Below are positions 16,969-43,261 of a DNA stretch of 64,000 bases, in pieces (the stretch's first letter is position 1; every line of letters starts with the position of its first letter). Location: positions 4,650,001 through 4,714,000 of the forward strand of contig OZ231126.1 of NCBI GenBank assembly GCA_965153355.1, in the 5' to 3' direction. The position numbers and the translations under genes were made by a program. Origin of the DNA: Flaccisagitta enflata. Taxonomy: Eukaryota. The notes beneath the pieces were generated by a model. It saw nothing but the letters and a program-made list of their open reading frames with translations. It ran no database searches and had not been told where the DNA came from.

Positions 16969-18430
16969 TTCTAGGAAATAATCGATCAAACAATAAAATC
17001 AATATGTCTGTCAATCTACCGATCTATTTATCTTTCTCTTTTTAGATGCGTCCGTCAGGAACGCATCTCTATAAGAGGGTCTGTCCGTCCGTCCGTCCGT
17101 CCGTCCGTCCGTCGGTCCGTCGGTCCGTCCATGACACCTGTGCGAAAACCGCGTTTCTCAGCTGATTTAGGCCATGGTGAGATCCTATACTGAATCTAGT
17201 GATCAACAAACGCGTTTTGGGAGTCTCCTTCACAACTCGCTTCATCTGTCTTAGAGACCGATCTAGAGAAATGCGACTTTCAACCGCAGTCGAAAACGCC
17301 TTTTGTTCAAAACTCAACTACCTGTAAGAAGCGCCCCTTGTGACCGCTAATCTTCACGGATTGACGTCATTCTTTTTTTTACGAGTAGCAGACGTCCTAC
17401 GCTTTCTGACTTTTTAGGTTTCGGAAATTGTTTTAATTTTTTTTAATGTTTACGGTACTGTTTTATTGAACTCTCTGTTAAACTTTCGCCTCCTCTCCAA
17501 AACTTGGAAGCTGTCTGATTTCGGACGTGATCGAAAGCAGTTTCGAAGTAAAGAAAGAAGTTCCGTCTGAGAATTTGTAATGGTTTGTTTTTAATCGCAC
17601 AACATCGTTGAATTTTTATCTATATTTGTTGTTTTTCTTCCCTTCTTAGTTGCGGACACGCAACTCTATAAGAGGCTTTGTCCGTTGGTCCGTCTGTTCG
17701 TCGGTCCGTCAGTCTGTGATGATCGAGTCGAAAAGTGGGAAAACGCGCATTTCCGCCTCTGCCCACCCGTCCGCAACTGTTGGCCGTGTTTCCGGCCGTG
17801 TATCCGGCCGTGTATCCGGCCGTGTATCCGGCCTTGTTACAGAATTTTTAGTCTCGGGGTGGGGTGGGTTGTGTCCCTGCGCAACGATATCGTAACCTTG
17901 TATTTGCACGTAGTAGTATTGAAATCGATATTTTCTTATCAATATTAGAAATTTCGTAAATGCAATAGTCTATAAACTAGCCCTCCCCCATGTAATTCGT
18001 AATTTTAAGTCAGGGATACGCGAGACTCTGAGCAGACGTTACGCGCTTTCTGACTTTTTAAAAATTATTATAGAATAATGTCTCTCTTCTGCATATGAGA
18101 CGGTTTAATTGATACCTCTCCTGCTACGCCGCAGACTTCTATTCCTCTATTCCTAATGAAGAACTAGCGGAGAAATAGTCAGTTGAAAATGTAAAAAGAA
18201 AATCCCAAAGCGCATTTGCTTTAAGACTGTCGGACGGACGGACAAAGCGGGGTGGAGTCGCGTAGCTTAGAACTAAAACAAGGCCAGATACACGGCTACC
18301 CCAGTCGCTTGGGGTGGGCAGGAGCAGCGCTTGAGAAGTTCACCAGAGCATTTGGGCAGGTGCAGTAGGCCCAAAAAGCTAAAAGACGCCGAAAAAGTTA
18401 AAAGGGGAACGACCGACCTACCGACCAATG

Positions 18431-19375
18431 CACTAAGGGCCATGGATTGCGCTAGATGGCTCCTTGGGTATTTGGGTGAAAATTTTCATCTCTGCTATTT
18501 GGCTCAAACTAAGTAGAATGGTCATGGTAGCATTTGAGCATATATTATCGGTCCATATGACAGGGTTTATGGCAATTTAGAGTGAAAAAAGGCGACCTTA
18601 ATGGACATTAATATAAAAAATGCTAAATTTCAAGAAAAATCAATGAATTTTTTGGATTTTCTGTTAAGATTACAAAAAGCTCATGATATCTTCAATATTG
18701 GATTAGATTCCTTCATCAATGTCTAAATGTCTGGAAAAATTTTAAAAATCATTATTTTTTACATTATTAGCACTTTTAAATCAGTCTACTATTACTACAT
18801 ATCTGACCTAATTTGCATGGTTTTATTATCCTATGAATGTAAAAAATCGCACAAGGACGCACAATGAGCGACCTATGCCAAAATGTAGTTCAAGGGGTCC
18901 TGAATCCAGAATGCTATGGCTTAAGTGGGCCTTTGACGTCCAAATTGCGATTTTTTTGGCCTAAAATGGACAAGTGATTATGTGGATGAAAGTAAAAATC
19001 TATATTTGATTGGAAGAAAAATGAGCAAAATGAGCAAAAAAATGATTTTTTTGAGCACCTTATTAAGGAATCTTATTGAGCAAATACAAAAATTTAATTG
19101 ATTTGGTCAAAACATTAGACAATTTGAATACCAAATGTAAGTGAGTTTAGCAGTATTTTTCACTTTTTCTCAAATTTCTTTCTTTTGTACCCTAAACTCA
19201 TAAAGCTCTTAATCCAATAGAATTGAGTCAATATTGGATATAAATAGTTTCATAACATCTGAAAATATGCAGAAAAATGTTTTTCACTCTGTTTATTTCA
19301 TAAGGAACAATGAAATGGAAAAGATGTAATGTTAATCCCCAATGAGCCACCTAGCGCACAATGCAGCCCACAGTG
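18431..19375. mobile_element. Non-autonomous Transib (RAG-like superfamily) element
   Basis: Termini CACTAAG.../...CACAGTG with roughly 38-bp imperfect TIRs. Exact 5-bp target-site duplication CAATG at 18426-18430 and 19376-19380. Confidence 0.75.
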
Positions 19376-19580
19376 CAATGGTATTTGATAGAAATGATGT
19401 AACAGTTATATTGATTTGCCAATAGTAGAGAAAGTATAGTCGCGAATTGTTTCCATGGCTAATAAGGAATTGCTAATTGTTGGGGGAGCCGGGTGTAGAG
19501 TCGCGTAGCACGCGACTAAAAAACATTATTTGCAAAACTTTTTCCGTCAGTTGGTTGGTCAATAACGCATTTGTCCGATG

Positions 19581-20660
19581 CGGCCAGGAATCTCGATGGA
19601 GAAAATCTCAGTTTTAAGGGTTATGAAAAAAAAAAATGGACCCATCCCAGATTTTTGCACAGGGGACCTAAAAAGGCTGTAGAACAAGATTCTGATGTTC
19701 ATTTTGACCTAACTTGAGCCAAAAAAAAAAGAAACGGGTTTTAGTGCAAAAAACAGCTATTTTTCCTAAAAAAATGGCATTAAATGAAATATTTTGGCCC
19801 TTTTTTTTGCAGAAACATAAAGTACCAATAGTAATTGATATTTGAGTGAATGTAGAACAATTTTTGATCGGTCTATGAGGTTCAAAAATAGCATTAAAAT
19901 GCTCAAAAATGAAGAAATGACCTAAGAATTAAAAAATCGTCAAAACTGATGATTTGGAACAGTTTCTTAGGGAAAAATATGCTGTCAGTATGAATTTCAT
20001 TGATTTACTTAAAAAAACATGGCCGTGATAAGTGAAAAACGCAAAACCGCAATATGCAAATGAGATCAAAGTGCGATTTTTGCAAAAAATGGCAAAACAT
20101 GTTTTTTCTTTTTATAGAAGCTAAACACAATAAAATATTGAGTACTTACCTTTCCAAAGCCATTTTTTGCAAAAACCGCACTTTGACCTCATTTGCATAT
20201 TGCGGTTTTGCGTTTTTCGCTTATCACGGCTATGTTTTTTTAAGTAAATGGATGAAATTCATACTGACAGCATATTTTACCCTTAGAAACTGTTCCAAAA
20301 CATCAGTTTTGACAATTTCTTGATTTTTAGGTCATTTCTTCATTTTTGAGCATTTTAATGCTATTTTTGAACCTCATAGACCGATTCAAAATTGTTCTAG
20401 AGTCACTCAAATATCAATTACTATTGGGACTTTATGTTTCTGTAAAAAAAAAGTCAAAAAAATTTCATTTAATACTATTTTTTTAGGAAAAATAGCCGTT
20501 TTTTGCAATAAAAACCGTTTCTTTTTTTTTTGGCTCAAGTCAGGTCAAAATGAACATCAGAATCTTGTTCTACAGCCTTTTTAGGTCCCCTGTGCAAAAA
20601 TCTGGGATGGGTCCATTTTTTTTTTTTTTTGGGGGATTTTGCAAGTGAGACTTCTGGCCG
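19581..20660. mobile_element. ~1.1-kb palindromic foldback DNA element
   Basis: Arms at about 19627-20095 and 20160-20630 are near-perfect reverse complements. Termini CGGCCAGGAATCTC / GAGACTTCTGGCCG, with a 4-bp flanking duplication GATG. Confidence 0.85.
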
Positions 20661-21511
20661 GATGTTTCACATGTCGCACACATTGGCCAACTTTGATTAG
20701 TTTTTCAGAAATGTTTTAAAAGAGGAAGCAATAGCTAACAGTAAAATAACTGTATCGTTCTTGATTATATCGCTTAAATGTTTGCTCATTAACCAGGTTC
20801 TTATGAGAAAAAAAATTGTCTGATTGTTCTCATGTTCAAATTCCCCCATTTCAAATATCTCAATTTTACAGGATACAAAATAAAAAAAGTTAATCTATTA
20901 TAAATTCTATGATAAAGATTTTAAAAAATATAGGATTAAAATATATTGATTTTGGAAAACTGGAGCTCATAGAATTTGGTAAAAAATTTCTTATTAAAAA
21001 TATTTTGTTTAAGAAATTATCAATTTATAAGTTTTGAAGAAATCATAATTTAGATTTGCTTATTCATATACTTATCTTGTTTCAAAGAACATCATTTTTT
21101 TAGCAAGCCTTTAATGTTCTCAAATTTTGGGCAGTCATCAGGTTTGAAAGTTTTAAAATAGTTGTTAATGTAAATGTGATTTTTATTCTTTATTTATAAA
21201 CATTTTTAACTGGTTTAAACAAGGTTGTCTTTTAAAAGAAAATGAAGGAAAATGTCAATGAAACTACAAAGCAGCAGGTTAAAATGTTTTTAATAAATAA
21301 AAAAAAAATAAAACTTGCTTTAAAAAAATATATATATATTTTATCTAGGATTATTGTCTTTATTGAAGAATAAACTCTAAGATTTTTAGTATATTTTTTA
21401 TTTATTTTGAATTTTAAAAAGATTTCAAGCTTGATATTTCAAAATTATTAAAAAAATAGTTTTCCAATATTTTTAGCTAATTTTAAAATTTTTGCAATTT
21501 TTAAACGTAAT

Positions 21512-22717
21512 TGTCGTGAAGCATGGTCTTGCACCAATTCTATCATTTCTTACGGATTATCTGGTTGGTATTTAGGCTTTAGATTTGGATTTATTAATTG
21601 ATATTTTTGATTATATTTAGATATTTTACTTAGATTTGACCGTTTTATTTAGATTGGTTTTTATCGTTTGCATTTATTACAGGTTTGATTTATTCTGATC
21701 GCATTTATTGACATCGTTTAGATTTATTGATTGATTTATTGACTCATTTATTCGTTTATTTCATGCATTTATTGATTTGTCCGTCTGATTTGTCCTTATT
21801 TCTGTCCAAATTGCTCATGTTTGTCCGTATGATATTTTCTTGCCTTGCATTTCGTTCCTGTTATGAATTCATTGCGCCTTTTGTCATTTGGGCTATTTTA
21901 GACCGATTTCGTAGCGCCCTCAATTGACCGATATTGGCATTTTTACTGGCTGACGCAATCGAACCTCGAAGGGAAATTGAAGATTTCCATAGAATTCTAT
22001 GATTTTCTAGAACCTTTCGTTGCTTAGTTACCGCCATTTTGCCGACGATATTTCCTTACAGAATCTAGAAAAGACGCTCATATTGCCAAAAACTACTCTT
22101 TCGCCTATTAAATAGACGCTTTTCACCATATTTTGCACTGATACGAGCCTTATTAGGACGCCTATTTGACTTCCCTGAGCGCCAAACAAAGGTGAGAGCT
22201 TGATTTGGGTTCATATTTCGTATTATTTTTCCCGTACTTAGCCATATTTTTCCCGTTTACGGCTTATTTTTCCCGTATTTTTGTCATTATTCCGTCATTA
22301 TTCCGTCATTATTCCGTCATTATTCGTTCAGTATTTGGTCACTTTCAGTATTATTGAGTATTTCTGGCTAGATATCTGTATATTCAGCTGCATTTTCATT
22401 AGCTCCTTTCATTTTTCACTGTCTTGCAGCTTTAACTGCTTCGCCTACGTTCAAATAAAAGAAGATCGCATTGAGATCGCTCTGTATTATTCGTGGGATT
22501 GAGGTTCAGTCACGAGCGGCGCAGCCGCATACAGGAGAGCTAGAGGCATTGGGCATTAGTTTAGTACACGACAATACAGTTAAAGCTTTTGTATCGCGTA
22601 TGCCCTGGCTCTTTTGTGTGTGTCTATTGTCGATCAGAACCGAGAAGACAAAGAACCGTTCCTAATCTTCGCTCGATTGGTGAGTATTCGACGAGAAAAG
22701 AATCAATTTGACCGACA
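21512..22717 (+). repeat. Putative 5' LTR (~1.2 kb)
   Basis: Starts TGTCG at a composition shift and ends CGACA (inverted termini). TATA-like TATTAAATAG at 22106-22115. Boundaries are unverified because there is no 3' LTR and no canonical TGG PBS. Confidence 0.55.
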
Positions 22718-22829
22718 GTCCCCCGTAAAACGGTGACCCTCGGAAGCACCCGCATTCGCACCCGTTATAATTGCACCATTTAGAAAGCTAGAAATACCAT
22801 TTCAAGGGTCTTCGTTCGCGAAGAAACTT

Positions 22830-23052
22830 GACTATTAGTCAGCCAGTCCAACTAGAATCTAGAAACTCGAAGAACCCTTCACCGGGTAATTCGGTCGCCT
22901 GTTAGTCAGTCAGCCCAACTAGAATCTAGAAACTCGAAGAACCCCTCACCGGGTAATTCGTCCCTCTGTTAGTCAGTCAGTTCACCTAGAATCTAGAAAC
23001 GACTATTTTCATCGAAGAACCCTTCACCGGGTAATTCGGGTCAGTCAGTCAG
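22830..23052 (+). repeat. Three ~67-bp tandem repeats in the retrotransposon 5' UTR
   Basis: TTAGTCAGTCAG..CTAGAATCTAGAAAC..TCGAAGAACCCTTCACCGGGTAATTCG occurs three times. Confidence 0.85.
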
Positions 23053-23242
23053 TATATCAGGTCAAGGGTATCAGCTGATTATACCTCGGTTACCGAGGGC
23101 TATCAAGCTGAGATCTTATTTGTCAAGGCAATTTTTAAAGCTCGTTTGTAGCTTTAATCTCAAAACGAATCTCGAGAGTTGGGCCTATTTTGGCACCTAA
23201 GTTCGAGTCTTTCTGCTCACCACAGAAAGCAAAACCGTCAGT

Positions 23243-26200
23243 ATGTCCGGTCTGCCGCCAGGCGCCGCGATGTACTATGACGTGCCTCCTCAGTATGACA
23301 GCCGTCATGCGAGGACGCTCGTCAAAGAGACGGCTAAGATTATTCAAGAATTTGTTCAAGCCCATGGAATGGGCCGGGATCATCCCGACGTAGAATTTAA
23401 GAAAACTGCAAATGAAGCAAGATCTCAGCTTGAAGCCAAACGCTTGGAAATGTCAGACATTTGCAATAAATTCGATAAGAAAGAAAATCAGGAAAAGATA
23501 GCTGCACAGATAGGGAAGCTTCAGATGACACTGGACGGACATCCGCCTTTCGACATACCATCACCGGTTGCTCTTGATCCCGATCTTGCACACCGTTTTC
23601 TCAACAGGATTGGTCAGCCCGTTCCGATCGATCCTCGTCCGACGTTTCCCATCGTCGTCGGACCTCCGCCGCTGCAACGTATGGCGCTGCCAATTCTTCC
23701 CGCGCTTCCGCCGCCACCGCCTCCCTCATCAGCGGTGGTGCCCGTCGCGCCTCAACAGCTCATCGCATTCAGCGACGCGTCGCGGACATCCGGTCGGTCC
23801 CGTCAAAGTGACGCCGGAAAGGAAAACGCCGGCGCTCTCGTTCCATCGAATACGGCGCCGCGACGTCTCGATTCTCTCGATCCATTACGTACCGAGTCTT
23901 CCGTCTCCAACGCTGCCGACGACGAATCTTCAGTCGCATCATCGCGCAGATCGAACAAGACTTCACATTCGGTCAAGCCCATCGACGAAGAGCCACCGGC
24001 GTCATCAGTGGCGGAAGGCGACCGAACACGGCTCAGAATTAGGTTAGAGGAATTAATGAGGAAAAAACAACAATGTGCTGAGAGGTCAAAACAGAAAGAA
24101 CAAAGATATGAACAAGAGGCCCGTCTATTGGCCCAGAGAATTCAAGCGACTTCGTTGAATACCATCGCGGGTCATGTCAATGCCGCGGTGCAAGAAGTCG
24201 AAGATCTTGTCTCAAACAATAAAACTATGGGGGCGGGTTTGAATCGTACTGAAAATTGGGTGGATAAATCATCGGCGCAGTCACTGGTCAAGTCCTCAGA
24301 TTCCATTTCAGTCGTTTCATCCAACCATTCAGACCTCAACCCTCGATCCACATCGAAAAAATCTCATTCACAGAAAGGAAAATCATCTGACCATTCCAGG
24401 GCTCGATCGCGCACCCAACAGACTCAGACCGATCGATCCGAGTTTCAGTCAATCCCTCAGCAGACTCAGACCGATCAAACCGAGTTTCAGTCAATTCCTC
24501 AACAGACTCAGACAGAGCCAATTCCTACTCGAGTCACTCAAAATAAGATTCCCCAAAGTCATTTTGCTCACGATCCCGATCAGACTTACCCTGGCCCACC
24601 TGGTCAGACCCAATTGCCCGCTCAGATCGCTCAAAATTTGACTCGATCCGGTCAACCAGATCACCCCTCCTCTTCAGACTCTGGCAGTTCAACCCTCACC
24701 GAAAGTACAATCAGACGAAGACCAAATTCACTCACTCATAGAAACGGTTCTCAGTCAAACCACGGCAGTCATGACAACCAACAATCATCCCATCAGACAC
24801 AACAATCAAACCAACATCAGACACCACCACAGGGAAGGGGAGCGGAAAAACCTGTAGGGCTCGCATGTAGCCACTCAGTAAATCGCGACCCTACCCCTGC
24901 TCAAACCCCAGCTCAATCAGATGCAGTCAGACCAAAAACTCATGTCTCCAGACCCCAACCGCCTACTTACCATGACCCAAAATTTCAGCTTCCTCCTCCA
25001 AAGCCTAGGTCACCACCCCGTCAGAATGTCAGTACATCCAGGGACCAAATTAATGTCGATTCATCTCAAACCTCACAGGCTGTTGGAGCGGGCGCTGCAT
25101 CTTACGCTCACACGGCTACGAGAAATTCAAATTCGCAATTGGCGGGTTCGTCGGTGCAAGAGGAAAGGATCGAATCCAATGGAGAAGATCTGCTCGACGA
25201 ATTCCCCATCGTAGTCGGCCTCAGCAATGGAAATACCATCACTCCAGCTGTAGGTAAGACCTCAGAGACTAGCGCCTTTGGGCGTACTATGATGACATTA
25301 TGCGCAGCAACCAATTCAAGAGAGTTTCTTAAAAACAATCGTTTGCCAGAGGACCAACGTTTCAACGGACAGCACAACGTTGACTTTGAATCAGTATTGC
25401 GCAGATTTGGCAGGGTCACAGTTCAGTCAGGGGTAGATAAGCATGAGGCTGTCTATGAACTTAAGCATTATTTTAGCGGCGACGCCGCTAAAATATGCGA
25501 GTTATATGAGAGAGATGGAGATCCAGAAACTAATCTCAAGCTAGCTATTGAGCATTTGAAACGCGAATATGGTTATCAGGCCAGATCAGCTCAGTCAATC
25601 ATAGACAGATTGTTACAGGGAGGAGCAATTCACAAAGATGATTCAGTCGAGTTTAAAAAATTCAGGATCAATCTTGAGGGAGAAGTGACCAAAGCACAAA
25701 CTTCAGGCCGAGCTAGTTCTTTCAATAACTCAGACACCATCAATAAAATAATTCGCAAAAAAGTACCCTTTGTACAACAAAGATGGGCAGTTGAGAGAAC
25801 TAAAAAGATGATGGCCATGAATCCCGATAATTTTGAACCCGAACCTCAATTTTCCGAATTTCTTACCTTTCTCCGTTCCCAGAATTTAATACGGGACGAA
25901 AATTCCTTGATCAGCGGAGAAAAGGATTCGGAGAATAAGAAAACAAAGACCAATCCTCGCGTCATGAAGATCGACACCGTCTCTTCCTCGAAAGCCGCCG
26001 ACGCCGGCGGCGCCAAAGGAGGAGGAGGAGGAGGAGGAGGAGGGAAGCGAAGAGGGAAGGGAGGAGCGAAGGCGAATAACACCACCGAGTCAGCCAACAC
26101 GCCCTCACCTCAAAACAACACCTCGTCTCCTCCAACCAACACCAACAATGAGGCAGCGATCGCCGTTAACCAAAGCCACCCGGACAATTGGCGCAATTAT

Positions 26201-26659
26201 TATCAAGGCAATAAAGGGGGAGGAATGAACAACTCCAACAACCCTACACAAACTTTCGGCTTCTCGAACCGACAAAACAACAACGCCAGTCCTCAGAACA
26301 ACAATCAGGGACGCAACAACAACAACACCAACGCAGCTACTGCCAACAACGCTGCAGGTAATTGGTCATGCCCGTGTTGTATGAAGTCCAAATACCATGT
26401 GCTTAAGGATTGTAAAAAGTTTGTTGCTTTGACTCAACCGGAACGATTCTCTGTTTTGAAAGCGAATGGAATGTGTAACAAATGCCTTGAACGCGGCCAC
26501 ATGGCCCGGGACTGTGCCACGGTAGTCGGCTGTGATCTCTGCCCGGGTAAATTTCATCATACCCTTATGCATAGAGAATTCAATAATCAGAAAAAGGGCG
26601 ACAATCAGAAAGGGGACGAATCTGATGATTCGGCAGACGAAAGCGAGAGTAACGATTGA
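23243..26659 (+). CDS. gag: BEL/Pao Gag (1138 aa)
   Basis: Long disordered N-terminus, then a capsid-like region (RFNGQHNVDF...LKHYFSGDAAK...LKREYG). Triple Cys/His boxes CPCC..H....C, CNKCLERGHMARDC and CDLC....HHTLMH. Confidence 0.92.
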   Translation: MSGLPPGAAMYYDVPPQYDSRHARTLVKETAKIIQEFVQAHGMGRDHPDVEFKKTANEARSQLEAKRLEMSDICNKFDKKENQEKIAAQIGKLQMTLDGHPPFDIPSPVALDPDLAHRFLNRIGQPVPIDPRPTFPIVVGPPPLQRMALPILPALPPPPPPSSAVVPVAPQQLIAFSDASRTSGRSRQSDAGKENAGALVPSNTAPRRLDSLDPLRTESSVSNAADDESSVASSRRSNKTSHSVKPIDEEPPASSVAEGDRTRLRIRLEELMRKKQQCAERSKQKEQRYEQEARLLAQRIQATSLNTIAGHVNAAVQEVEDLVSNNKTMGAGLNRTENWVDKSSAQSLVKSSDSISVVSSNHSDLNPRSTSKKSHSQKGKSSDHSRARSRTQQTQTDRSEFQSIPQQTQTDQTEFQSIPQQTQTEPIPTRVTQNKIPQSHFAHDPDQTYPGPPGQTQLPAQIAQNLTRSGQPDHPSSSDSGSSTLTESTIRRRPNSLTHRNGSQSNHGSHDNQQSSHQTQQSNQHQTPPQGRGAEKPVGLACSHSVNRDPTPAQTPAQSDAVRPKTHVSRPQPPTYHDPKFQLPPPKPRSPPRQNVSTSRDQINVDSSQTSQAVGAGAASYAHTATRNSNSQLAGSSVQEERIESNGEDLLDEFPIVVGLSNGNTITPAVGKTSETSAFGRTMMTLCAATNSREFLKNNRLPEDQRFNGQHNVDFESVLRRFGRVTVQSGVDKHEAVYELKHYFSGDAAKICELYERDGDPETNLKLAIEHLKREYGYQARSAQSIIDRLLQGGAIHKDDSVEFKKFRINLEGEVTKAQTSGRASSFNNSDTINKIIRKKVPFVQQRWAVERTKKMMAMNPDNFEPEPQFSEFLTFLRSQNLIRDENSLISGEKDSENKKTKTNPRVMKIDTVSSSKAADAGGAKGGGGGGGGGKRRGKGGAKANNTTESANTPSPQNNTSSPPTNTNNEAAIAVNQSHPDNWRNYYQGNKGGGMNNSNNPTQTFGFSNRQNNNASPQNNNQGRNNNNTNAATANNAAGNWSCPCCMKSKYHVLKDCKKFVALTQPERFSVLKANGMCNKCLERGHMARDCATVVGCDLCPGKFHHTLMHREFNNQKKGDNQKGDESDDSADESESND

Positions 26660-26752
26660 CTTCTTGCCGCATATGTAACCCGTCGAGGAGCAACTAGGCC
26701 TATTGTACCTGTTGTAGCTTATGTTAGTGGTAAGCGACGGGTTACATATGCG
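26657..26752 (+). promoter_or_regulatory. Stop-codon readthrough signal: UGA-C, 8-nt spacer, 18-bp stem-loop
   Basis: TGA at 26657-26659, then spacer CTTCTTGC. CGCATATGTAACCCGTCG (26668-26685) is the exact reverse complement of CGACGGGTTACATATGCG (26735-26752). Confidence 0.85.
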
Positions 26753-29700
26753 CTTCTCGATACAGGGGCGAATACCTCTGCTATCACAGAATCCCTTTGT
26801 TCAGAATTAAATGCCCCCAGAAAATTGATAAATGTTAAATTGAACACTTTTGACAATTCCTCAAATTCTAAAAGATACATAACCGATTTTAAAGTTACAA
26901 ACCTTCAAAATACCCTTGAACTGTCAGTAGAAAATGCCCTCATAGGCAGATTCTTAAGCACTGAAGGGGAGAAACCACCCTCACAGGAAGACTTAGAGCC
27001 ATTTGAACATTTGAAGGATTTGAGGATTTGTGAGCTAGAAGACAAAAGTATCAATATTTTATTAGACGCAAAATTCGCCTACTACTTTTGTACAGGTGAT
27101 AACCGCATAGGAAATTCAGATCAGCCTTTAGCCCTAGGGACCCAATTTGGCCATGCAATAATAGGACCAAAAATTACAGATGACCCCAATGAAGACGATG
27201 AAAATGACATTCAGGTTAATGATATGTTAGATATTAATGCTGAAACCATTTCCATCTCAAAATTAATAAATAGGGCCTTTAGGCAAGATTTCATCTGTAG
27301 AGATTTTGAGTTGTTTCCTCAAGAAATGACTCACAAGTCAGCAGAAGATGAAGAAAGTTTAGCTCAGATGCAGAAAACAGCCAGATTCATAGAAGAAGAA
27401 GGTAGATGGGAAATTACCATGCCCTGGCGTTTAGGCCGTCAGCCCACTGCAGATCTTTTTAGAACGATAGATTTTCTTTCCATGACAATGAACAGACATA
27501 GTAAGTTAAAAAGAAAATTTGAGCTAAACCCAACATTAAGAGAGGGCTCTTTCATTCAAATGCAAATGACATTGGACGAGGGGCATGCACGTATTATTGA
27601 TACTTTAGAAGCACCCAACGACCATGTCATTTGCTACCTCCCTAATCATGTCGTGGTTAAGCCTGACAAACCCGGAAAATTCCGGATTTGTCAGGACGCG
27701 GCAGCCAGGGTAGGTCCACATTTTTTGAACAAATATCTCTTCAACGGTCCAGATTTGTTAAATAGATTGATCAAAGTGATCCTCAGATTCCGCAGAAAAA
27801 GATACACCATTTCAGCGGATATCAAGAATTTTTTCTATCAAATTCTGTTAGACCCTAGAGATAGATCGTCCCTTAGATATCCATGGTGGAGTGATCAAAC
27901 CATGTCACGTGTAATTATGATAGAAAGTTTGCGTCACATGTTTGGAGTGACTAGCTCGCCAAATGTATCTAACTTTATCTTGAAATTACACGCAGAAAGG
28001 AACAAAGACAAAATCAGTCAGGAAGCTTATCTCGCTTTACTTGAGGCTATGTATGTTGATGATTTATTGGAGTCAATCGACGATAAAGACACAGCCCGTA
28101 GAATTAAGGCAGAGATCACAGACGTGCTTAAGAGTGGTGGGTTCGAAATCTGTAAATGGAAAGCAAACTTTCCTGATCTCGATCTTCCCTCTCTTTCTTC
28201 CCCAACTTCTCAGAATGAAACGCGCAGAGCTTCGGAACTTGCAACCCCGACATTCCATGAGACTTTGGAGGAAAATCGTCTTCAGAACACGCCAGAAAAG
28301 AACCCATCAGAAAGGAACCCATCAGAAAAGACCCCGCCAGACGAGAACCGGCAGGAGAGCGGCTGGGCCCGGCCACATTGCGCCGTCGGTGCGTCTCGCG
28401 ATCCTCGCCCTTCGCCAAACGCAGAGTACGACGAAGAGGATGAGGAAGAAGAGGGCGACGATGAATCAGAATCTCAACTCACGCCAAGCGAATTGGTGAG
28501 TTTGATGAATGACAATTATGATGAATCGTGCGCCAAACAATTCTTGAATGAATCAGACCTTGAGGATAAGGTTTTGGGCATGGGGTATAGCTTTGAGGAA
28601 GATATTATAAATGTCCGGGTTGGAAATAAAGCAGAGAGAGAAATCAAAACGAAGAAGGATCTCTTATCTTTTGTGGCTTCAGTTTATGACCCGTTGGGTC
28701 TTGTTGCGCCATGGCTTTTACCCGGCAAATTGTCTTTCCAAAAAATTAGTTCCCCTAGCATTCCCTGGAAACAAACCTTATCTAAAGAAATAAAAAGTGA
28801 GGTTGACAAATGGAAACAGACTATAGTTCACCTTAAGAAAATAAGAATATCACGCTGGACTAATCCTCTGGGTATGGAACATAGTATAACCCAATTGATT
28901 ATTTTCTGCGATGCGAGTAGATCGGGTTATGGTATGTGTTCATACTTAAGACGTCATCAAAGAGGAGCAGAGGATAAAGTCAGCGTGGTATTTCTCGTAG
29001 GAAAAGCGCATGTTGTCCCAGCCAATATGATGTTAGATCCAACTGAGGGAGCAATACCCCATAATGATTCTATACCCCGCCTTGAGTTATGCGCCGCAAA
29101 GATTGCGGCGCAATGGAGGGATACTTTGTATAGAGACTTAGGGGAAGTTTTAGATGCTGTCTTTTTGTTCTCGGACTCACTGACAGTACTCAACTGGCTC
29201 ACTAACTTTATAAAGCGCTTCAAAACTTACGAAAATTTTAGAATTAAGGGTATTAGAGCCTTGACCCCCCTTTCCGAATGGCGCCATGTGCCCAGTAAGG
29301 ACAACCCCGCCGATATATGTTCTAAAGGCCTTGGCGCAACAGACACTAAAAGGTGGTTCATATACCATAACGGTCCATCTTTTTTGTCTTTACCCATTTC
29401 CAGTTGGCCTCCCATCCGACCGAACGATCCTAACTCCAACGTGGATACTCTGGTCGCAGACGTGGGTGCCCTATCAATTCTTGCGCTGAACGGATCCACT
29501 GAAGAGCCCGAGATAATCGCCGAAAAGCATTCGTCCTCTCCTTGGCCTTTGGCCGCCACCGGTAAGATAGCCGAGTGGAGGTGGAAAGTGAGACGCATTG
29601 CTATCATTAGGCGAGTCTTATTAAAATTGAGAGAAGTGGTTAAGAATAAGAAAGAAAACCTGGTGAGTTCCAGATTGCGATCAGGAAATAATAAATCCAA

Positions 29701-31117
29701 AGAAAAATTGCGCATTCACCTAAGTGAGGAAGAAAAGGAGGCTGCTGAGTATCTTTTGATCAGATCAATCCAAAGTGAGGAATTTGAGAAAGAAACCACC
29801 AAATTAATCAAATTAGGCATTTTCTCACCTAACACTATCCACGATATGAATATCAAAGATACCAAATTAGCAAAATTATGCCCCTTCTTAGACTCACATA
29901 ATGTCATGCGAGCAGGTGGTAGAATAGCCAAAGCCGAGTATCTGCCATACAACCACAGATACCCCATCATACTTCCAAACAGCACTTCAGAACCCATTAG
30001 AGCACTTATAAGGCACTATCACCAGGCCCATTACAAAAGATTCCACTGCACCGTGCAACAAACTTACTACCTTCTGAGAACCAAATACTTCATACTTGGT
30101 GGCAAAAATTCAGTCAGAAGTGTTTTGAGTAAATGCATAGTCTGTCAGAAACTGTCAAAACGCAAGGCAGCACAAAAGGAAGGTGATCTACCACTCGAAA
30201 GGATGGCAATGGTACCCCCATTTTACCATTGTGGTTTAGATTGCCTAGGACCCTTCCATTTGAGACATACAGGCAGAAACACCCGCAAACAATTCGTGCT
30301 CATTGCATGCTGCATGTCCACTCGTGCCATTACTTTAGTGCCACTTCGCGATATGACCACCTCTAGCATCATCAATTCACTGATCAAAATCCACTCACAG
30401 TTTCCCGCCCTTAAAAATTTGTACTCTGACAATGGGTCAAATTTTAAGGGCGCAGACAGAGAAATTAGGGAAGCAGTGGCAGCTTGGAAAAAAGAGGATT
30501 TAGATGAGAGGTTAAGCGATCTGGAACTCACTTGGACCTTTGGGCCGGCCTATTGTGGTAGCGCCGGCGGTAGTTGGGAGCGTTTAATAGGATTGTCAAA
30601 GAAACTATTAAGAAGTGTAATTGGTGACAAAAACATAGATATTGAGGATTTTGAAACTTTGTTGGCAGGAGCCAGTTCTATCATGAATCGTCGTCCACTG
30701 ATGCCGGCATCGGCAGATGTAGACGACGATCAGATTTTAACTCCAAGTCATTTCCTCTATCCTTACCTATTCACTTCTGACGCTACTCATATTCTCCCTC
30801 CTCAGGCCGAACACAATCACGTCCTGAAACACGGGTGGAAGTGCTCCCAATTTCTCCTCGATCAATTTTGGCGAAGGTTCAGCACGGAATACATTCAAGA
30901 ACTGATAAAAAGAAACAAACAAAACACGACGCCTGTCAAAATAAACACGCTGGTCCTCATCGAAGACGTGGAAGCTTCGAGAGAATCATGGAAAGTCGGT
31001 CGAATAGTAGACATTCTCAACGGTGACAAAACCCACGGAAGAAGGTTTAAAATCCGATTAGCCTCTGGGAAAACTATCGATCGTCATATATCATCGTGTG
31101 TAATTCTTGAGACCTAA
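26660..31117 (+). CDS. pol: BEL/Pao Pol (aspartic protease, RT, RNase H, integrase), in frame with gag after the UGA
   Basis: The frame is open from 26660, upstream of the TTG used by the ORF track. Protease YALLDTGA (D at 26759-26761). RT YLPNHVVVKPDKPGKFRICQDAA, ADIKNFFYQI, YVDD (28052-28063). RNase H FCDAS, SIPRLEL, SDS, HVPSKDNPAD. Integrase HHCC, DCLGP, SDNGSNF, GGSWERL. C-terminal FWRRFSTEY. Confidence 0.95.
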   Translation, partial: LLAAYVTRRGATRPIVPVVAYVSGKRRVTYALLDTGANTSAITESLCSELNAPRKLINVKLNTFDNSSNSKRYITDFKVTNLQNTLELSVENALIGRFLSTEGEKPPSQEDLEPFEHLKDLRICELEDKSINILLDAKFAYYFCTGDNRIGNSDQPLALGTQFGHAIIGPKITDDPNEDDENDIQVNDMLDINAETISISKLINRAFRQDFICRDFELFPQEMTHKSAEDEESLAQMQKTARFIEEEGRWEITMPWRLGRQPTADLFRTIDFLSMTMNRHSKLKRKFELNPTLREGSFIQMQMTLDEGHARIIDTLEAPNDHVICYLPNHVVVKPDKPGKFRICQDAAARVGPHFLNKYLFNGPDLLNRLIKVILRFRRKRYTISADIKNFFYQILLDPRDRSSLRYPWWSDQTMSRVIMIESLRHMFGVTSSPNVSNFILKLHAERNKDKISQEAYLALLEAMYVDDLLESIDDKDTARRIKAEITDVLKSGGFEICKWKANFPDLDLPSLSSPTSQNETRRASELATPTFHETLEENRLQNTPEKNPSERNPSEKTPPDENRQESGWARPHCAVGASRDPRPSPNAEYDEEDEEEEGDDESESQLTPSELVSLMNDNYDESCAKQFLNESDLEDKVLGMGYSFEEDIINVRVGNKAEREIKTKKDLLSFVASVYDPLGLVAPWLLPGKLSFQKISSPSIPWKQTLSKEIKSEVDKWKQTIVHLKKIRISRWTNPLGMEHSITQLIIFCDASRSGYGMCSYLRRHQRGAEDKVSVVFLVGKAHVVPANMMLDPTEGAIPHNDSIPRLELCAAKIAAQWRDTLYRDLGEVLDAVFLFSDSLTVLNWLTNFIKRFKTYENFRIKGIRALTPLSEWRHVPSKDNPADICSKGLGATDTKRWFIYHNGPSFLSLPISSWPPIRPNDPNSNVDTLVADVGALSILALNGSTEEPEIIAEKHSSSPWPLAATGKIAEWRWKVRRIAIIRRVLLKLREVVKNKKENLVSSRLRSGNNKSKEKLRIHLSEEEKEAAEYLLIRSIQSEEFEKETTKLIKLGIFSPNTIHDMNIKDTKLAKLCPFLDSHNVMRAGGRIAKAEYLPYNHRYPIILPNSTSEPIRALIRHYHQAHYKRFHCTVQQTYYLLRTKYFILGGKNSVRSVLSKCIVCQKLSKRKAAQKEGDLPLERMAMVPPFYHCGLDCLGPFHLRHTGRNTRKQFVLIACCMSTRAITLVPLRDMTTSSIINSLIKIHSQFPALKNLYSDNGSNFKGADREIREAVAAWKKEDLDERLSDLELTWTFGPAYCGSAGGSWERLIGLSKKLLRSVIGDKNIDIEDFETLLAGASSIMNRRPLMPASADVDDDQILTPSHFLYPYLFTSDATHILPPQAEHNHVLKHGWKCSQFLLDQFWRRFSTEYIQELIKRNKQNTTPVKINTLVLIEDVEASRESWKVGRIVDILNGDKTHGRRFKIRLASGKTIDRHISSCVILET

Positions 31118-31808
31118 AGAACACAGTGGGATCGTCGACCCACAGGAGGACGCGTGTAATAGAATACTTTCATTTAGACTATGTTTTACAGTCAGTCGTG
31201 AGTTTCACATTTCAGTAATTAGTATTCCGTTAAGACCTTTTTCAAATCATAATAATTCAGTGACTTCAGTTAGAAATTTCGTTATTCATCGCTCGTCACT
31301 ATTGCCAGAACGTATTTACATACTAGGAATTCCTTATCAGTCACTTCTTGTGTCAGAATTGAATCACAGCGTTAATAAGATCAGAACGCCAAACCCAGAA
31401 AAGTCATCATCTTTACAACTTTCTGAAACTCAGTATAGCGTACTTTCGCAACTGCGAGATACTAATTCGTTAGAGCGAGATCCTACGATAGTTTATTCGC
31501 TATTACCGGTTTCTTTAGACAAAACATTTTCGGCATTCGATAATTCAAATTATACTTCTCTTATGATTCATCTTTCCATCTCGATCATTTTGTTCGAGGA
31601 GAAAGGTCGTCCATTCGATAGATACCATTCTGAAATAAAATCCTCTTTGCCTTGTCTCTCGATTCATTTTCTCTTTGTCTTCGATCGCGATTATTTTTCT
31701 CTTATTCTACTCGATTCCTTCCACTCGTGTTCAGAGAAAGTAGTCTTCCGCACTTGTGTCCTCACATGTGTTTACCGCGTTATTCATTCCGCGAAGAAAA
31801 ATAGCATC

Positions 31809-34800
31809 ATGCCTCGATCGTTTAAATCGATGCACAGTCGTCAAATTTCCGACGACGGGATCGAAGAAGAGGGTTTCGTGCCCAACACTCGATTGAGCCG
31901 ATTCGACAAAGAGCAAGAGGATAGAAAATTGAGACAGAAATATAGACTCGTCGTTGCAAGAGAACAGACGGCGAGATGGGTCGCGAAGGGAGGAGAAGAA
32001 AGTGAGGAGGAGGAGGAAGCAGTCGAAGTCGACATGGCCAATCCATCGGCCACTCGCAACGACATCATCTTCCCTACCACCGTCGACCTTGCGAACACTC
32101 ATCGCGTCGAACCTCCTCGACGACATTTTCAAATCTCTTCCATTCCCCAAGTACCTCCATTCCACTCGCGGCCAAAGTCACCGCCACCTCCTCCGCCACA
32201 TGATCCGCCGTTTGACACTTTATCGTCTCGCGCCCCTTCTCCCGTTTCCTCTATCGCTTCTTCTTCCGTCGTCTCGATGAATTCGACTCTGGTGGGCGAC
32301 GACAGTCAGTCAGGACCGGTCACTCATGTGTTCAGACCGGGGATGGCAGCCTCGGCGGTCCTGGCTGACAACGACGCTGATGATTCGAAGAAAAATGACG
32401 AGATCTCAACGAAAACCAACGACGCCGCCGCCGCCTCTCTTACTCTTCCTCCTCCTCTCAGGACGACGTCACCCCGGCCAGTCTCAAGAAAGCCGCCGAA
32501 GAAGGGCAGCCGAAGGGAAGCGGCAGTGGCAAGACCGTCTGCGTCTTCGCCCTGTCCCGCGGACCTGACGCTGACCCGAAACCAGCGGAAGAAGATTTAT
32601 CGGAAACAGAGGGAAGATGCAGAAAGAAAAGAACTGAGTGGCTTGTCGGAAGAACAGAAGAAATTAAAAGAATATCAACAGCGGATCCAACTCCAGGCCG
32701 ACAAGGACCATCTCAAGGCCAGAAGACGTCACGATCAAAGGGAAAGAGCAAGACAGAAAGCAGAAAAGGAAGGAGAAGAAAAGTTTAAGGTGGACAAGAG
32801 CGCGAAAGAAAGGCAGAAGGAAGCAGAAAAGAAAAGAAAAGAACAGCAGAAGGAAGAAGCGGAACTGAAAGAAAGGGTGGAAAAACTAAAGATGATGAAG
32901 GAAAAGTTGGTGAAAATGGGAGGAGTAGAAGAAGCGAAAGAACTAATAGAAAGAGAAATGGAAGAGGAGGAAGAGGAAGAGGAAGTAGAAATAGAAGTCG
33001 AAGACGACTGGCAAGCGATCGCCGCGGAATTCGACGTCGTTCTTCCCATGGTCAAAACCCAGTATCCAAAGCCGGGTCAACCAAAAGAAGTAAAAAGAAT
33101 AAAAGTGTCAAAGGAAAAGAAGAAAGAAAGAAAGAGAGAGGAGAGGGAAGCGCATAACGCGGCCGACCTCATCAACATTTCGGCCGAAATTTACGGAAAA
33201 CAGCCCGAAGACGACTTCAGCGAAAATGACCCGAGGGAATTGATGCGTCTCTACGATGAAGCGGACCAGGAGTGGACGAAAATCGAAGAATACCGTTCAC
33301 TCGAAGCTCATCCGACCCACACCCCACAACAACGGGCCGCCATGAGCCATGACGACCAGAATTACCTCTTTTCAGAGGTCCGTCCATGCAAGACCAAGGC
33401 CGAGGCGGAAATGCTGAAACGTCGTTGGGAGGAAGCAATCGGACCGGAAGTATATCAGTACTACCGCTCTTTCGGATGGCGCGTCCCGGATTGGCTGGAA
33501 TGGGGGAAAGTTCTCAAACTCCAAGATAAAAAGATTAGGGTAAATATCTCCGCCAATCACGCGAAAGACCTTTGTAGTCACTCAATCAACCAATCTATCT
33601 TGGTTTTCCATAGTCCCACTTTGATTTTCAATAAACTTATGTTTCTTGTTCTTGAATCCTCAATCACTTTCACAAAATTCTCATACACCCTCCAGGCGGT
33701 CTTTCGAGGCATTCTCCGTCATGCCGGGGCCACCGAGGACGAAGTGAAGGAGTTTGACGATAAATGTCATCGTGCCCTCTTCAACGATAAAACCATGATG
33801 AGTTATCCTCAAATGAACGCGCAAGAGTTGGAGTCGGCGATGCGTTACGCGTTTCGCACGGGCCACCGAACGTCTCTGGTGCTAAGCTGCAACCCTCGCC
33901 GCCGCGGTTACCAGATGAAGACGGAACTGAAATGGGACGACAAGGAGATCGACTACGATCGTCCATCGACCTATTTCGACGGCGCGACCATCCGATCGGC
34001 ACAAGCAAAGCGTCAGGCTGAAGCGGATCGGCAACGGAACGCTCGCTTCGCCCGCGATCGAGCGGCGCAAGAACGCCGCGACGCCGACGCACGAGCCGCC
34101 GAAGAAGCGCGTCGAGCCGGTTTACCAGTCATCGGTAAAAAGACTGATAATTACCAGTTGACAACTCAGCGTAAGGTTATTTTAGAAGAAGAAAAGAAAT
34201 CAAAACAGCGCATCATGAACTTGAAGAGATCGCTAGGAAAAGAACAAGAAACAAAAAAGGACATTAAAAGAAGAAAAACTAAGAACACCATCTTGAGCAA
34301 GAAAGTGAGAGAAGTGAAAGAGATAGCAGATTCACTACCTCCAGTTTTAGCTCAACAAAGAAGAGTCTTCCTCGAGGTAGTTTCAAAGGCAGATGCATCA
34401 CCCCTGGAGACCTTTGAAGAATTCCAAGAAAAATGGGAAAAAGAACAACAAAGAAAGGCAGAAGAACAAGAAAAACAAGAAAAAACAGACGAGTTAGAAC
34501 AGACCAAAGAACAAGAAGAACAAGAAAAAACAAACGAGTTAGAACAAGAAGAAACAAAGAAAACAGAACAGAGTGAAAACCAACCGAAACGAAAAGTCAA
34601 AATCAGAAGAAAAGTAGTATTACTTTCAGAACAGGTCGAGAAAGAACAACAGGCAGAAGAAGAACGAAACGAAAAAGAACAAAACGAAGAGAAACAGAAC
34701 GGAGAAGAACGAAATGGAGAAGAACAGATGGAAACAGAACAGATCGAGACAGAACAAATTGAAACAGAACAAATAGAAACAGAAAAAGAAGATACAAAAC

Positions 34801-34962
34801 AATCCGGCGAGTCAGAACAGAATGATACAGAACAAAACAATGAAGAACCAGACTTGCTAGAATTAAAAATAGGAGAGGAAGAATATGAAACATTAGATTT
34901 AGAAGAAGAGTTAGGGATTGACAGGGACATTTCCTCTCAACCTGTACAGAACAAATCGTCAC

Positions 34963-34963
<1 letters not shown>
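31809..34963 (+). CDS. Retrotransposon ORF3: large charged/coiled-coil accessory protein, not env-like; probable intron 33540-33695; C-terminus truncated
   Basis: The likely start is ATG 31809 (MPRSFKS), where composition turns coding-like. It has Pro/Ser-rich, E/K/R coiled-coil-like and acidic regions around a ~200-aa aromatic-rich core. No signal peptide or transmembrane helix once the putative intron is removed. It runs into (CT)n. Confidence 0.7.
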
Positions 34964-36270
<1,307 letters not shown>

Positions 36271-38465
36271 GTACATGGATGTGTGTTTCGTAATAAGATG
36301 AGATATGAGACCGGGCAACGATGCGTCCAGGCCGTGTCTGTGCCTGTATTGACAGATAGACAAACAGATGAAAAACAACTAAGTAGTAAAGGAGGCTCCA
36401 AAAACATGTTTGGTTGATCATTTGTTTCAGTATAGGATCTCACCGTGGCCAAAAACAGTCGAGAAACGCGGTTTTTGCACTTGCGCAACGGACATAGGGA
36501 CGGACGGACGGACGGACCAACCCTTTTATAGAGATGTGTTCCTGACGGACGCATCTAAAAAGAATGAAAAAAAGGAAGAAACAAACAAGCAAGCGAAGGG
36601 AGAAACAAAGGAAGACAGAAAAAAGAATGGAATGATGGAAGAAAATAAGAAAGAAAGATAGATATGGAGAGGGAAGAAAGAAAGAACAAGGCCGGATACA
36701 CGGCCATCAGTTGCAGACAGGTGGGCAGGGGCAGAAATGCACGTTTTACCACTTTTCGACTCAATGATTACGGACGGATTGACGGACGGACGGACCGACA
36801 GACCGACGGACCGACGGATGGACGGACAAACAAAGCCTCTTACAGAGTTGCGTGTCCGCAACTAAAAATAAGCACAAATTAAAAATGTTAAATGGTCAGC
36901 GGTACTCACTGCCTTTAACTTGGAATATGTCAGAATATGGAAGGGAGAGGGGCAATGGTTCTGAAGAGTTGAATGGCTGATCTGTTGAAGGGTTGAAAAG
37001 TGATCACAAAATTTTGTGTTCCGTCCATTCTTTTAAAGTGATTTCAAGGGAACAACTTATTGTCATGTGCACGCGACTATATAAGCCGCTATATCCATTT
37101 GTCAGTCAGTCGGTTGGTCAGTCTGTCAGACCATCGTTGACACTTTGCCTTTACAGCATTTATGGGCGTTTTTTGCTGTGCTGCTCCTGCTCAAATGCTC
37201 GATTAGCCTTTTTTATCACTGCCCCTGCTCACCCACACATTACTTGGGTAGCCTTATATCCGGCAGGGTTCAACTGTAGTCATAAAAGTGTAAATTTTAG
37301 CGTTATGATGCCCCCTTATTTAGTTGATGTAAGGATGTGATAGTAAGAGGGACGTCGGCCTTAAAGGGAACAATTGCCTGTGCGCGGCTGTGATTTGCAT
37401 TATAACCTTTAAATTCAAAATTCAAATTCATCCAGCTAGTAAAGGAAGGCAACACTGCCTGTTGACCTAGCATCAATAAGTCAAACATTCATCCTTTCAA
37501 AAAACACCCATCAAATCACAAAGGTGATGTTACCGATACAATACCATACAATACCAAAGCACAAAACCTCCGAAGAGCTCCATGGATGTCTCGTACGAAA
37601 AGATAGGCCCACGATCCAACAGAGTCCAAAGCAGGAGGTACCATTATGATAACACCAGCAATTCTACCTAAATCATCTGTGAGGGCCAGAGCGTGCGGCT
37701 CTCTCACTATTCACCAGAACCACTATCGGCTGATTTCAAATGACCTTGGTATGGGGACATAAAAGATGGCGGATTTTGGAAAACTAAATCTATCTACCTT
37801 AAATTGAGAAAAACTGTAAAAAATCGGTGACCATTTTGAAGCTCTGCGAAAGAATTTTTAAATGAGACGTTGCTGGTTGCCCTAGCTTTATCCATTTAGA
37901 AATGGCATTGGAATAAACACCGGTTGTCAGAAATTTGAGAATTCACTATAGGACTTGCGAGTTTTTTGTTTGTTGTAACATAGAAACCAAACGCATTAAG
38001 TAAAAAATTCGTTCTTGGCGCCATTTTAAAGATGATTCAAAGCTCTTTAATTTGCTCATGGATATCCGGTGGCTGTGACAATTCTATATTGCATTATTAA
38101 GAAAAACGTTGAGACAAAAATTGACAATGTTTGCCCTTTTTGGAATCGGTGATATTTTTCTTCAAACCTATGCCATTTCTAAACAAATAAAGCGTGGGGC
38201 TTTCTGGGCGTGAGGCTGAGATTTGAGCCTCAACATTGAGACTGGGATTTGGGTTTTGAGGCTGGGTTGGACCTTGAGGCGGTGATTTAGTTCTCAAAAC
38301 GGTGATATGAGCATCGTGGCCTGAATTTGACTGAAGGAAAAAAAATCTAGTCATCCAAGGATCGCAAATGGTCAGCGGTACTCGTTGCCCTGCTTGGAGT
38401 GATTTCTTTAAGTCCTGAGAAGGCACATTTGAGACCGTTGGGGCTATTTTCCATGTTATTCAATG

Positions 38466-38466
38466 C

Positions 38467-38499
<33 letters not shown>

Positions 38500-38507
38500 G
38501 TTGTTAT

Positions 38508-38542
<35 letters not shown>

Positions 38543-38605
38543 ATTTGTTTGTTCTTTTTCTTCAAATCTTCTTCTTCTTCTTCTTCTTCTTCTTCTTCTT
38601 CTTTA

Positions 38606-38636
<31 letters not shown>

Positions 38637-39090
38637 CTTCGTCTTCATCTTCTTCTTCTTCTTCTTCTTTTTTTCTTTTTCTTCTTCTTCTTCTTCTTCT
38701 TCTTCTTCTTTCTTTCTCTATTTCATTTTCATTTTCATTTCTATTATTTTCTTCTTCTTCTTCTTCTTCTTCTTCTTCTTCTTCTTCTTCTTCTTCTTCT
38801 TCTTCTTCTTCTTCTTCTTCTTCTTCGTCTTCTTCTTCTTCTTTTTCTTCTTCCTCTTCTTCTTCTTCTTCTGCTTCTTCTTTTTTTTTCCTTTTCTTCT
38901 CTTTTTCTTTCGTCTTCTCTTTTTCTTTTCTTCTTTTTCTTCCTTTTTTTTTTTTTGGCTTTCATTGTTTGTTTTTTATTTGTTTTTGTTTTTGTTTTTG
39001 TTTTTTTTGTTTTTTGTTTTGTTTTTGTTTTTGTTTTTTTTGTTTTTGTTTTTGTTTTTGTTTTTTTGTTTTTGTTTTTGTTTTTGTTTT
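38466..39090. repeat. Compound microsatellite (GTT)n / (TTC)n / (TTTTTG)n
   Basis: Directly visible. Confidence 0.95.
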
Positions 39091-39873: not shown

Positions 39874-39983
<110 letters not shown>

Positions 39984-43207: not shown

Positions 43208-43261
43208 TCAGATCTCGCTCTCTTATGCTGGTTCAGTTTTCATGATTTTTCTACAAGTGGT

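Follow-up and report, generated by a model that had tools for sequence, protein, structure and literature searches.

Typical BEL/Pao retrotransposons encode Gag and Pol in a single open reading frame (ORF). Setting of the Gag-Pol ratio by readthrough of a stop codon is a textbook feature of the gammaretroviruses and is known for a few Ty3/gypsy and Ty1/copia elements. The subject of this analysis is a retroelement, assigned to the BEL/Pao type on its domain content, that lies on the + strand of a 64-kb stretch of DNA from Flaccisagitta enflata (contig OZ231126.1; the whole stretch of 64,000 nucleotides (nt) is referred to as the window). Its two large ORFs, gag and then pol, share one frame and are separated by a TGA codon that is followed, after a short spacer, by a perfect stem of 18 base pairs (bp).

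According to the portion of Firth et al. (2011, PMC3159437) that was available, the type II readthrough class, as redefined there, is characterized by UGA-C and an extended 3' stem-loop, the long "loop" of which folds upon itself. The examples given include the UGA-C at the nsP3/nsP4 junction of the alphaviruses, segment 9 of the coltiviruses, the tobra-, furo-, and pomoviruses, and kelch of Drosophila, and in Venezuelan equine encephalitis virus (VEEV) the structure boosts readthrough 10- to 14-fold (PMC3159437). For UGA-C with such a structure in alphaviruses, the same paper gives a gain in readthrough of up to 10-fold. Spacers of 8 nt or more are described, in the accessible sections of a 2026 review, for Moloney murine leukemia virus (MoMLV), VEEV, Sindbis virus (SINV), and Colorado tick fever virus (CTFV) (PMC13517186). 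The same sections place the MoMLV stop at protease residue 5, with the stimulatory RNA encoding the protease's N-terminal fold (PMC13517186). An in-frame TGA-CT between gag and pol of the fission-yeast Ty3/gypsy elements Tj1, Tosmo1-3, and Tcry1 is read as programmed readthrough in the available part of another report, where transposition of Tj1 is said to require the stop and where Candida Tca2 and Dictyostelium skipper are named as further in-frame-stop cases (PMC10085805). For the BEL/Pao elements our literature search yielded no paper on stop codon readthrough, the principal survey, by Gao et al. (2003, RNA 9:1422), lying outside its coverage; de la Chaux and Wagner (2011, PMC3118150) refer neither to stop codons nor to frameshifts nor to readthrough.

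On the basis of the sequence and of related proteins, we consider it probable, at roughly 0.7, that the gag/pol junction of this element is a UGA-C cassette for programmed readthrough, one of the "type II plus extended stem-loop" kind known from the alphaviruses, used within a BEL/Pao sublineage.

The UGA codon and the downstream hairpin

The two stop-to-stop ORFs extend from 23201 to 26659 and from 26660 to 31117 and lie in a single frame, and the TGA at 26657-26659 (+ strand) is the sole stop between gag and pol, precisely as had been stated in an initial annotation made from the sequence. The codons that follow are CTT CTT GCC, which likewise bears out the UGA-CUU context that it had described. 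The stop is positioned in a linker at the gag/protease border, where it interrupts no domain, and both gag and pol are uninterrupted across 2624 codons. The in-frame UGA is thus followed by a C and by a same-frame downstream ORF lacking its own start. Indeed, pol reaches its first in-frame ATG at codon 189, well past the catalytic Asp-Thr-Gly of the protease (26759-26767, + strand; pol codons 34-36), and therefore production of the protease needs ribosomes that pass the TGA. The initial annotation had noted that no in-frame ATG precedes the LLDTGA motif, and this holds, but its distance of 33 codons requires correction: the motif begins 32 codons past the stop, and its aspartate is codon 34. 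Across gag-pol, TGA occurs in frame once in 2625 codons, as opposed to counts of 54 and 79 for the other two frames; there are 28 TGG codons. Because of this single in-frame occurrence, TGA is not used as a sense codon here.

The spacer between the stop and the stem, CTTCTTGC, is 8 nt in length (26660-26667). It is followed by an inverted repeat of 18 nt, the arms of which, at 26668-26685 and 26735-26752 (all + strand), are 100% complementary and are separated by 49 nt; the stem claimed at this location is thus present as described. The 5' arm codes for (A)AYVTR(R), where the protease has its N-terminal edge, and the 3' arm for RRVTYA, the strand immediately before LLDTGA. Folding of the RNA from 26650 to 26770 gave a stable predicted stem-loop of -45.7 kcal/mol (z -3.72; 0 of 200 shuffles equally stable) that starts about 8 nt after the stop. 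The 49-nt "loop" (26686-26734, + strand) contains two small hairpins in this fold, at about 26690-26715 and 26717-26735, in keeping with the further structure that had been anticipated there. The stem is retained in a 301-nt fold context with a z of -4.23, and one of 100 shuffles was equally stable.

Within the element ORFs (23.2-35.1 kb) this stem is the sole perfect inverted repeat of at least 14 bp with a loop of at most 120 nt. Other repeats of that class in the window are located at 10.6, 16.5, 20.1, and 41.7 kb and in a repeat block at 46.8-48.5 kb. By our own estimate, about 1e-4 perfect repeats of 18 bp would be expected per window by chance. The codons of both arm peptides were also redrawn from the element's own codon usage in 200,000 trials of synonymous resampling: 18 Watson-Crick pairs were obtained in none of them (0/200,000), and 16 or more pairs in 0.2%. 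Each of the four Arg codons of the arms is CGN, whereas the commonest Arg codon of the element is AGA. Because synonymous resampling never reproduces the 18 pairs, the pairing is fixed at the nucleotide level; the stem is under nucleotide-level selection rather than arising as a side effect of the peptide. A search of 26400-27000 against Rfam gave no matches at E <= 10, and a transfer RNA (tRNA) scan of the 64-kb window gave none.

The boundary and the stem in related elements

The comparison of the gag/pol boundary rests on protein collections and public sequencing runs, and the relatives are known from their protein sequences. The gag relatives P0034-P0038 are 42-62% identical to the window gag in alignment. 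Four of these, P0034-P0037 (39-54% identity by BLASTP, 42-58% in alignment), terminate no more than one residue from the end of the window gag and carry the same acidic tail. The closer gag fragments P0109 and P0256-P0258 (86% or more) and P0120 (57%) stop at the same position, and altogether the window gag end is matched in nine of the ten relatives checked. The tenth, P0038, is truncated upstream within gag and is uninformative with respect to the end. The relatives with matching ends range in identity from 39 to 95%, and the same ends recur in cluster members from many contigs.

The 14 closest pol relatives (P0003-P0016), which are 43-79% identical and 1448-1529 amino acids long, are all pol-only ORFs. 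Six pol families (P0003, P0005/P0057, P0007, P0112, and P0181) start one or two codons past the stop position, the start of P0181 being the very first codon after it. The pol N-termini MAAFVG..., MAACVG..., MMACVG..., MAAY..., and VLAAKV... align with the LLAAYV of the window just past the stop. Gag and pol of one family were assigned to the same contig by equal contig size, examples being P0034 with P0048 at 11,249 nt, P0095 with P0005 at 10,460 nt, P0035 with P0064 at 9,322 nt, and P0091 with P0061 at 9,537 nt.

No fused gag-pol was observed among the close relatives when protein lengths of 1443-4592 amino acids were searched; distant matches of 1660-2051 amino acids include a gag part. A junction-spanning query with an X at the stop was compared with 1.84 billion representatives, and the best 150 were parsed by BLAST. 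These include 72 fused proteins (matches to both gag and pol), 67 that are pol-only, and 11 that are gag-only. Among these best 150, the fused proteins are all at most 35.5% identical in the pol part, and every protein at least 36% identical there is pol-only. Of the six matches returned by the junction query from near-length proteins, none crosses the stop. One close relative, P0118 (168 amino acids, 642-nt contig, 60% identical), has a W at the stop position, after which the pol frame is lost by a frameshift. The W represents either a TGG, the copy being decayed, or a TGA that the gene caller translated with a TGA=Trp table, one base from TGA either way.

Because the gag ends and pol starts of the relatives coincide with the site, the stop is, as judged from these proteins, not a private nonsense mutation of this copy. 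The initial annotation had deemed a random nonsense mutation very unlikely, and a boundary shared by relatives 39-95% identical, with no fused close relative found, agrees with that assessment. A sense codon in most sister copies, which it had named as counting against its proposal, was not encountered in this indirect test by protein ends. Its statement that BEL/Pao elements usually have a single gag-pol ORF is in accord with the 72 fused distant representatives among the 150 and with the genomic locus L004, a fused gag-pol ORF of 1787 codons.

L004 is one of several distant loci seen at the DNA level. A scan of metagenome contigs gave L001-L003 (29-32% identical), a scan of genome contigs gave L004-L008 in metagenome-assembled genomes (25-29% identical), and a scan of viral contigs revealed no related locus. 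L002 contains many stops. In L001 (30% identical) gag and pol are in one frame with a single stop, a TAA at 2068-2070, inside a C-x2-C-x4-H-x4-C knuckle. L001 was rejected as a second in-frame-stop case, given that the TAA breaks the gag CCHC zinc knuckle and is a plain nonsense mutation.

Conservation of the stem was assessed at the codon level. The first two bases of the 5'-arm codons pair with those of the 3'-arm codons, so that 12 of the 18 pairs can be predicted from amino acids; the score of a random amino-acid pair is 0.71 of 2. For P0006 and P0199 the initial M was assumed to be a GTG valine codon. The pairing score is 12 of 12 in the window, 10 of 12 in P0003, 9.5 of 12 in both P0057 and P0112, 9 of 12 in P0007 and P0118, 8 of 12 in P0005 and P0181, 7 of 8 in P0006, 6 of 8 in P0199, and 6 of 12 in P0167. 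Pair 4 varies across the families as T/V (AC/GT), G/P (GG/CC), A/A (GC/GC), and G/S. Pair 5 occurs as R/R, Q/W, H/C, N/L, and D/L, with failures in Q/R, P/C, H/I, and G/I. With its own partners the pairing totals 94.0 versus a shuffled mean of 81.5, and 0 of 20,000 shuffles of the 3' arms reach 94.0, a fraction that is not a probability because the families are related. Since pair 6 fully pairs in the window only, the conserved core of the stem appears to be about 15 bp, the perfect 18 bp being particular to the window family. The compensatory changes that had been suggested as a test of the stem are thus supported in part, by codon-level covariation inferred from amino acids, but pairing is poor in some families. 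Lack of stem conservation, also named beforehand as adverse, was not observed, in that the core covaries at the codon level as judged indirectly from proteins.

Of the sequencing runs, X1 (DNA) and X22 (poly-A RNA) come from the same organism, and the two runs X2 and X7 are marine metagenomes. Contigs of X1, X2, and X7 cover the junction, and among the differences listed none falls at the stop, the spacer, or the arms. The stretch from 26616 to 26884 has a single listed difference, G>A at 26727 (Ser to Asn), which lies in a hairpin loop. For X2 the differences listed number at least eight in 26434-26615 and at least six in 26885-27103, and five of the six in the site-spanning X1 contig are placed elsewhere. 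At 26727 the window has G (Ser), and the high-depth contigs of X1 and X2 have A (Asn), as do relatives such as P0003 at the protein level; the window copy is thus a minor variant at this position. The assembled pieces number 52, of which 25 are less than 90% alike, and this fragmentation merely fits a multi-copy family; the depth of roughly 847 in X1 is not a copy number.

Proposed mechanism and competing explanations

In the mechanism that we favor, the sublineage would keep gag and pol separate but in the same frame. Most ribosomes would terminate at the UGA at 26657 to produce Gag, and a minority would decode it by a near-cognate tRNA and continue through protease, reverse transcriptase, and integrase to produce Gag-Pol. 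The leaky UGA-C(U) context would raise the frequency of readthrough, as would the stable stem-loop, which, because its base begins 8 nt after the stop, would be located at the mRNA entry channel while the stop occupies the A site. The stem is written within the protease coding sequence, and protein and RNA helix would therefore evolve together. We infer that readthrough occurs, that the stem stimulates it, and that it sets the Gag:Pol ratio. A wider proposition, to which we would give even odds, is that an entire marine-animal BEL/Pao sublineage, comprising dozens of families to about 36% pol identity, swapped the single ORF for helix-driven UGA readthrough. The long-kept helix would then dictate the amino-acid covariation between two protease segments (T/V, G/P, A/A; R/R, Q/W, H/C).

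Several observations weigh against programmed readthrough at this site. The identity of the stop in the relatives, its frame, and the third codon positions are inferred from proteins only, and a close relative, P0118, has a W at the stop site. The stem is weak or absent in P0167 (6 of 12) and in P0005 (8 of 12), in P0199 pair 5 has a score of 0, full pairing of pair 6 is confined to the window, and the families that entered the shuffle test are related. The differences in the sequencing runs are those listed, and the invariance of the stop and the arms is suggestive only. This copy is without a flanking pair of long terminal repeats (LTRs), and its competence for mobility is thus not evident. 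Finally, in X22, of which roughly 6% was read, no reads were found at the junction; the 17 partial reads, under 90%, are confined to 27368-27403, and the result is no evidence either way on expression.

That the TGA arose by a recent nonsense mutation in a dead single-ORF BEL/Pao copy, with the repeat as a chance product of mutation, for example an inverted duplication by template switching, we regard as very improbable and as already largely refuted. Nonsense mutations certainly happen in such elements, the TAA in the fused gag-pol of L001 being an example, and a template switch would yield a perfect repeat in a single step. The missing LTRs of the window copy, the lack of RNA reads at the junction, and the W of P0118 would also suit a dead element. 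Such an accident is difficult to reconcile with gag ends and pol starts that match the site in relatives from 39% to 95% identical and from many contigs, or with the failure to find a fused close relative. It would also have had to strike the linker at the natural gag/protease border, outside the domains, leave the flanking ORFs intact across 2624 codons, and produce arms that covary in relatives. Another mechanism at the boundary, be it frameshifting at the stop in the relatives, a pol mRNA that is spliced or subgenomic, reinitiation, selenocysteine insertion, or a host code in which TGA is sense, is in our judgment quite improbable. The relatives are known from proteins alone, such that their frames are not visible, and the W of P0118 would suit TGA read as Trp. 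The pol of the window, however, is in frame 0 and makes frameshifting unnecessary, and pol has no ATG before codon 189. In-frame TGA is avoided as befits a stop (1 versus 54 and 79), and a third open frame that follows pol has none. No joints across the region were seen in any run, RNA coverage being nil, and the Rfam search of 26400-27000 gave no match resembling a selenocysteine insertion sequence.

The TGA could instead be a conserved gag terminator at which Pol is produced by recoding on the UGA-C context alone, the hairpin serving in the packaging or dimerisation of the RNA, in a pause that lets Gag fold, or as a target of a host double-stranded-RNA pathway. We consider this unlikely. The context alone permits about 1% readthrough in alphavirus reporters, according to the available portion of that work (PMC3159437), and a separate purpose for the hairpin would accommodate a stem that differs in length by family, that is poor in P0167 and P0005, and that matches no Rfam family. 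It does not account for a stem located exactly 8 nt past the stop, the spacing of the stimulators in MoMLV, VEEV, SINV, and CTFV as given in the accessible sections of the review (PMC13517186), nor for its being the sole such repeat in the element ORFs, nor for the covariation of its core.

If readthrough of the UGA were confirmed, a third superfamily of LTR retroelements would join the list of those that employ it, and the "UGA-C, 8-nt spacer, extended stem-loop" design of the alphaviruses would have been put to convergent use. The junction would furthermore provide a natural cassette of about 100 nt with which to study long-helix readthrough on invertebrate ribosomes. The codon by codon co-evolution of the arms in a protease gene lends itself to teaching how constraints on RNA and on protein overlap, and if the sublineage-wide proposition proved true it would be a clear natural case of RNA structure shaping protein sequence. 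The general principles are unchanged by the finding.

Architecture of the element and comparison with known systems

By translation, gag (23243-26656, + strand) is formed by 1138 codons beginning with the ATG at 23243. Its N-terminal half (23243-25300) is long, of low complexity, and rich in Pro, Ser, Gln, and Asn, and at 1138 amino acids the gag is unusually long. The core is conserved and capsid-like, and the C-terminal part displays three Cys/His zinc-knuckle-like motifs followed by the acidic tail, which ends in ...ESND. Because the gags of relatives are similarly long (1119-1204 amino acids) and have an N-terminal motif (...YD.RH.R...) in common with that of the window, the extension is a family trait. 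Comparison of gag with Pfam gave no families at E <= 0.01, and gag does not match the DUF1759 (PF03564) type; PF03564 is present in distant fused relatives of the window element. The C-terminal Cys/His region of gag aligns with fused BEL/Pao proteins at 24-46% identity.

The pol ORF (26660-31117, + strand) contains 1485 codons, ends with the TAA at 31115-31117, and encodes protease, reverse transcriptase, a Peptidase_A17 region, an integrase zinc domain, and DUF5641. Peptidase_A17 (PF05380) was identified by Pfam at residues 664-840 with an E value of 7.7e-35, RVT_1 at 371-503, Integrase_H2C2 at 1114-1166, and DUF5641 at 1393-1482. An aspartyl protease motif is located at residues 29-73 (a weak gag-asp_proteas match). 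Peptidase_A17, reverse transcriptase, and integrase thus occur together with the domains in the order protease, reverse transcriptase, integrase, and because of this Pfam domain set the element is, as far as its sequence can tell, of the BEL/Pao type; the initial annotation had assigned the downstream ORF in the same way. LTRs, which would be expected of a BEL/Pao element, were not seen: self-BLAST of the window, and BLAST of 17.0-23.4 kb against 30.9-40.0 kb, gave no direct repeat pair.

Sensitive BLAST of the flanks (17000-23242 and 31118-40000) revealed only a dispersed repeat of ~180 bp, at 17.6-17.8, 36.7-36.9, 40.5-40.7, and 58.9-59.06 kb. The GC content steps from 28% to 47% near 22 kb. 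The third open frame (31104-35057, + strand) has 1317 codons and, in a frame other than that of pol, overlaps the last 14 nt of pol. Its first ~230 codons are non-coding in appearance, after which a Met begins a Lys/Glu/Arg-rich, coiled-coil-like protein. The frame closes in a (TC)n tract, is without a Pfam match, and contains no TGA. Elsewhere in the window there are a self-complementary stretch of 1 kb at 19626-20626 (90% identical), a tandem array of a GTCTGTAGACTCGCGATTCC-like 20-nt unit at 42.3-43.3 kb (42300-43270), and an AT-rich block, 2.5 kb in length, in which inverted and direct repeats are nested, at 46.1-48.6 kb (46100-48620).

Like typical BEL/Pao elements, the window element has the customary set and order of pol domains and Cys/His knuckles in gag. 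It differs from them in that a stop divides gag from pol, gag is 1138 amino acids long and without PF03564, and LTRs were not found. With MoMLV it shares gag and pol in one frame, a single stop at the N-terminal edge of the protease, and an 8-nt spacer. The stop context, however, is UGA-C rather than UAG-G, and the signal is therefore not of the gammaretrovirus type. In addition, the predicted fold is a branched stem-loop rather than a compact H-type pseudoknot (no pseudoknot search was made), and the spacer is pyrimidine-rich rather than purine-rich.

The Tj1, Tosmo, and Tcry1 elements resemble the window in having TGA followed by CT between gag and pol, kept across related families. These elements, together with Tca2 and skipper, belong to the Ty3/gypsy or Ty1/copia types, whereas the window element is of the BEL/Pao type. 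The fission-yeast signal is an 8-bp context, and a downstream helix is not mentioned in the available part of that report (PMC10085805); the window has such a helix. In comparison with the type II cassettes, the host in the window is a retrotransposon rather than an RNA virus, the "loop" is 49 nt as opposed to a span of approximately 140 nt in VEEV, all 18 bp of the stem are perfect, and the window is known from sequence alone. The features held in common are a UGA followed by C, a long basal stem a few nt past the stop (8 in the window), an inter-arm "loop" of tens of nt that folds upon itself, a 3' arm positioned where the coding sequence tolerates it, and a replication enzyme as the downstream product.

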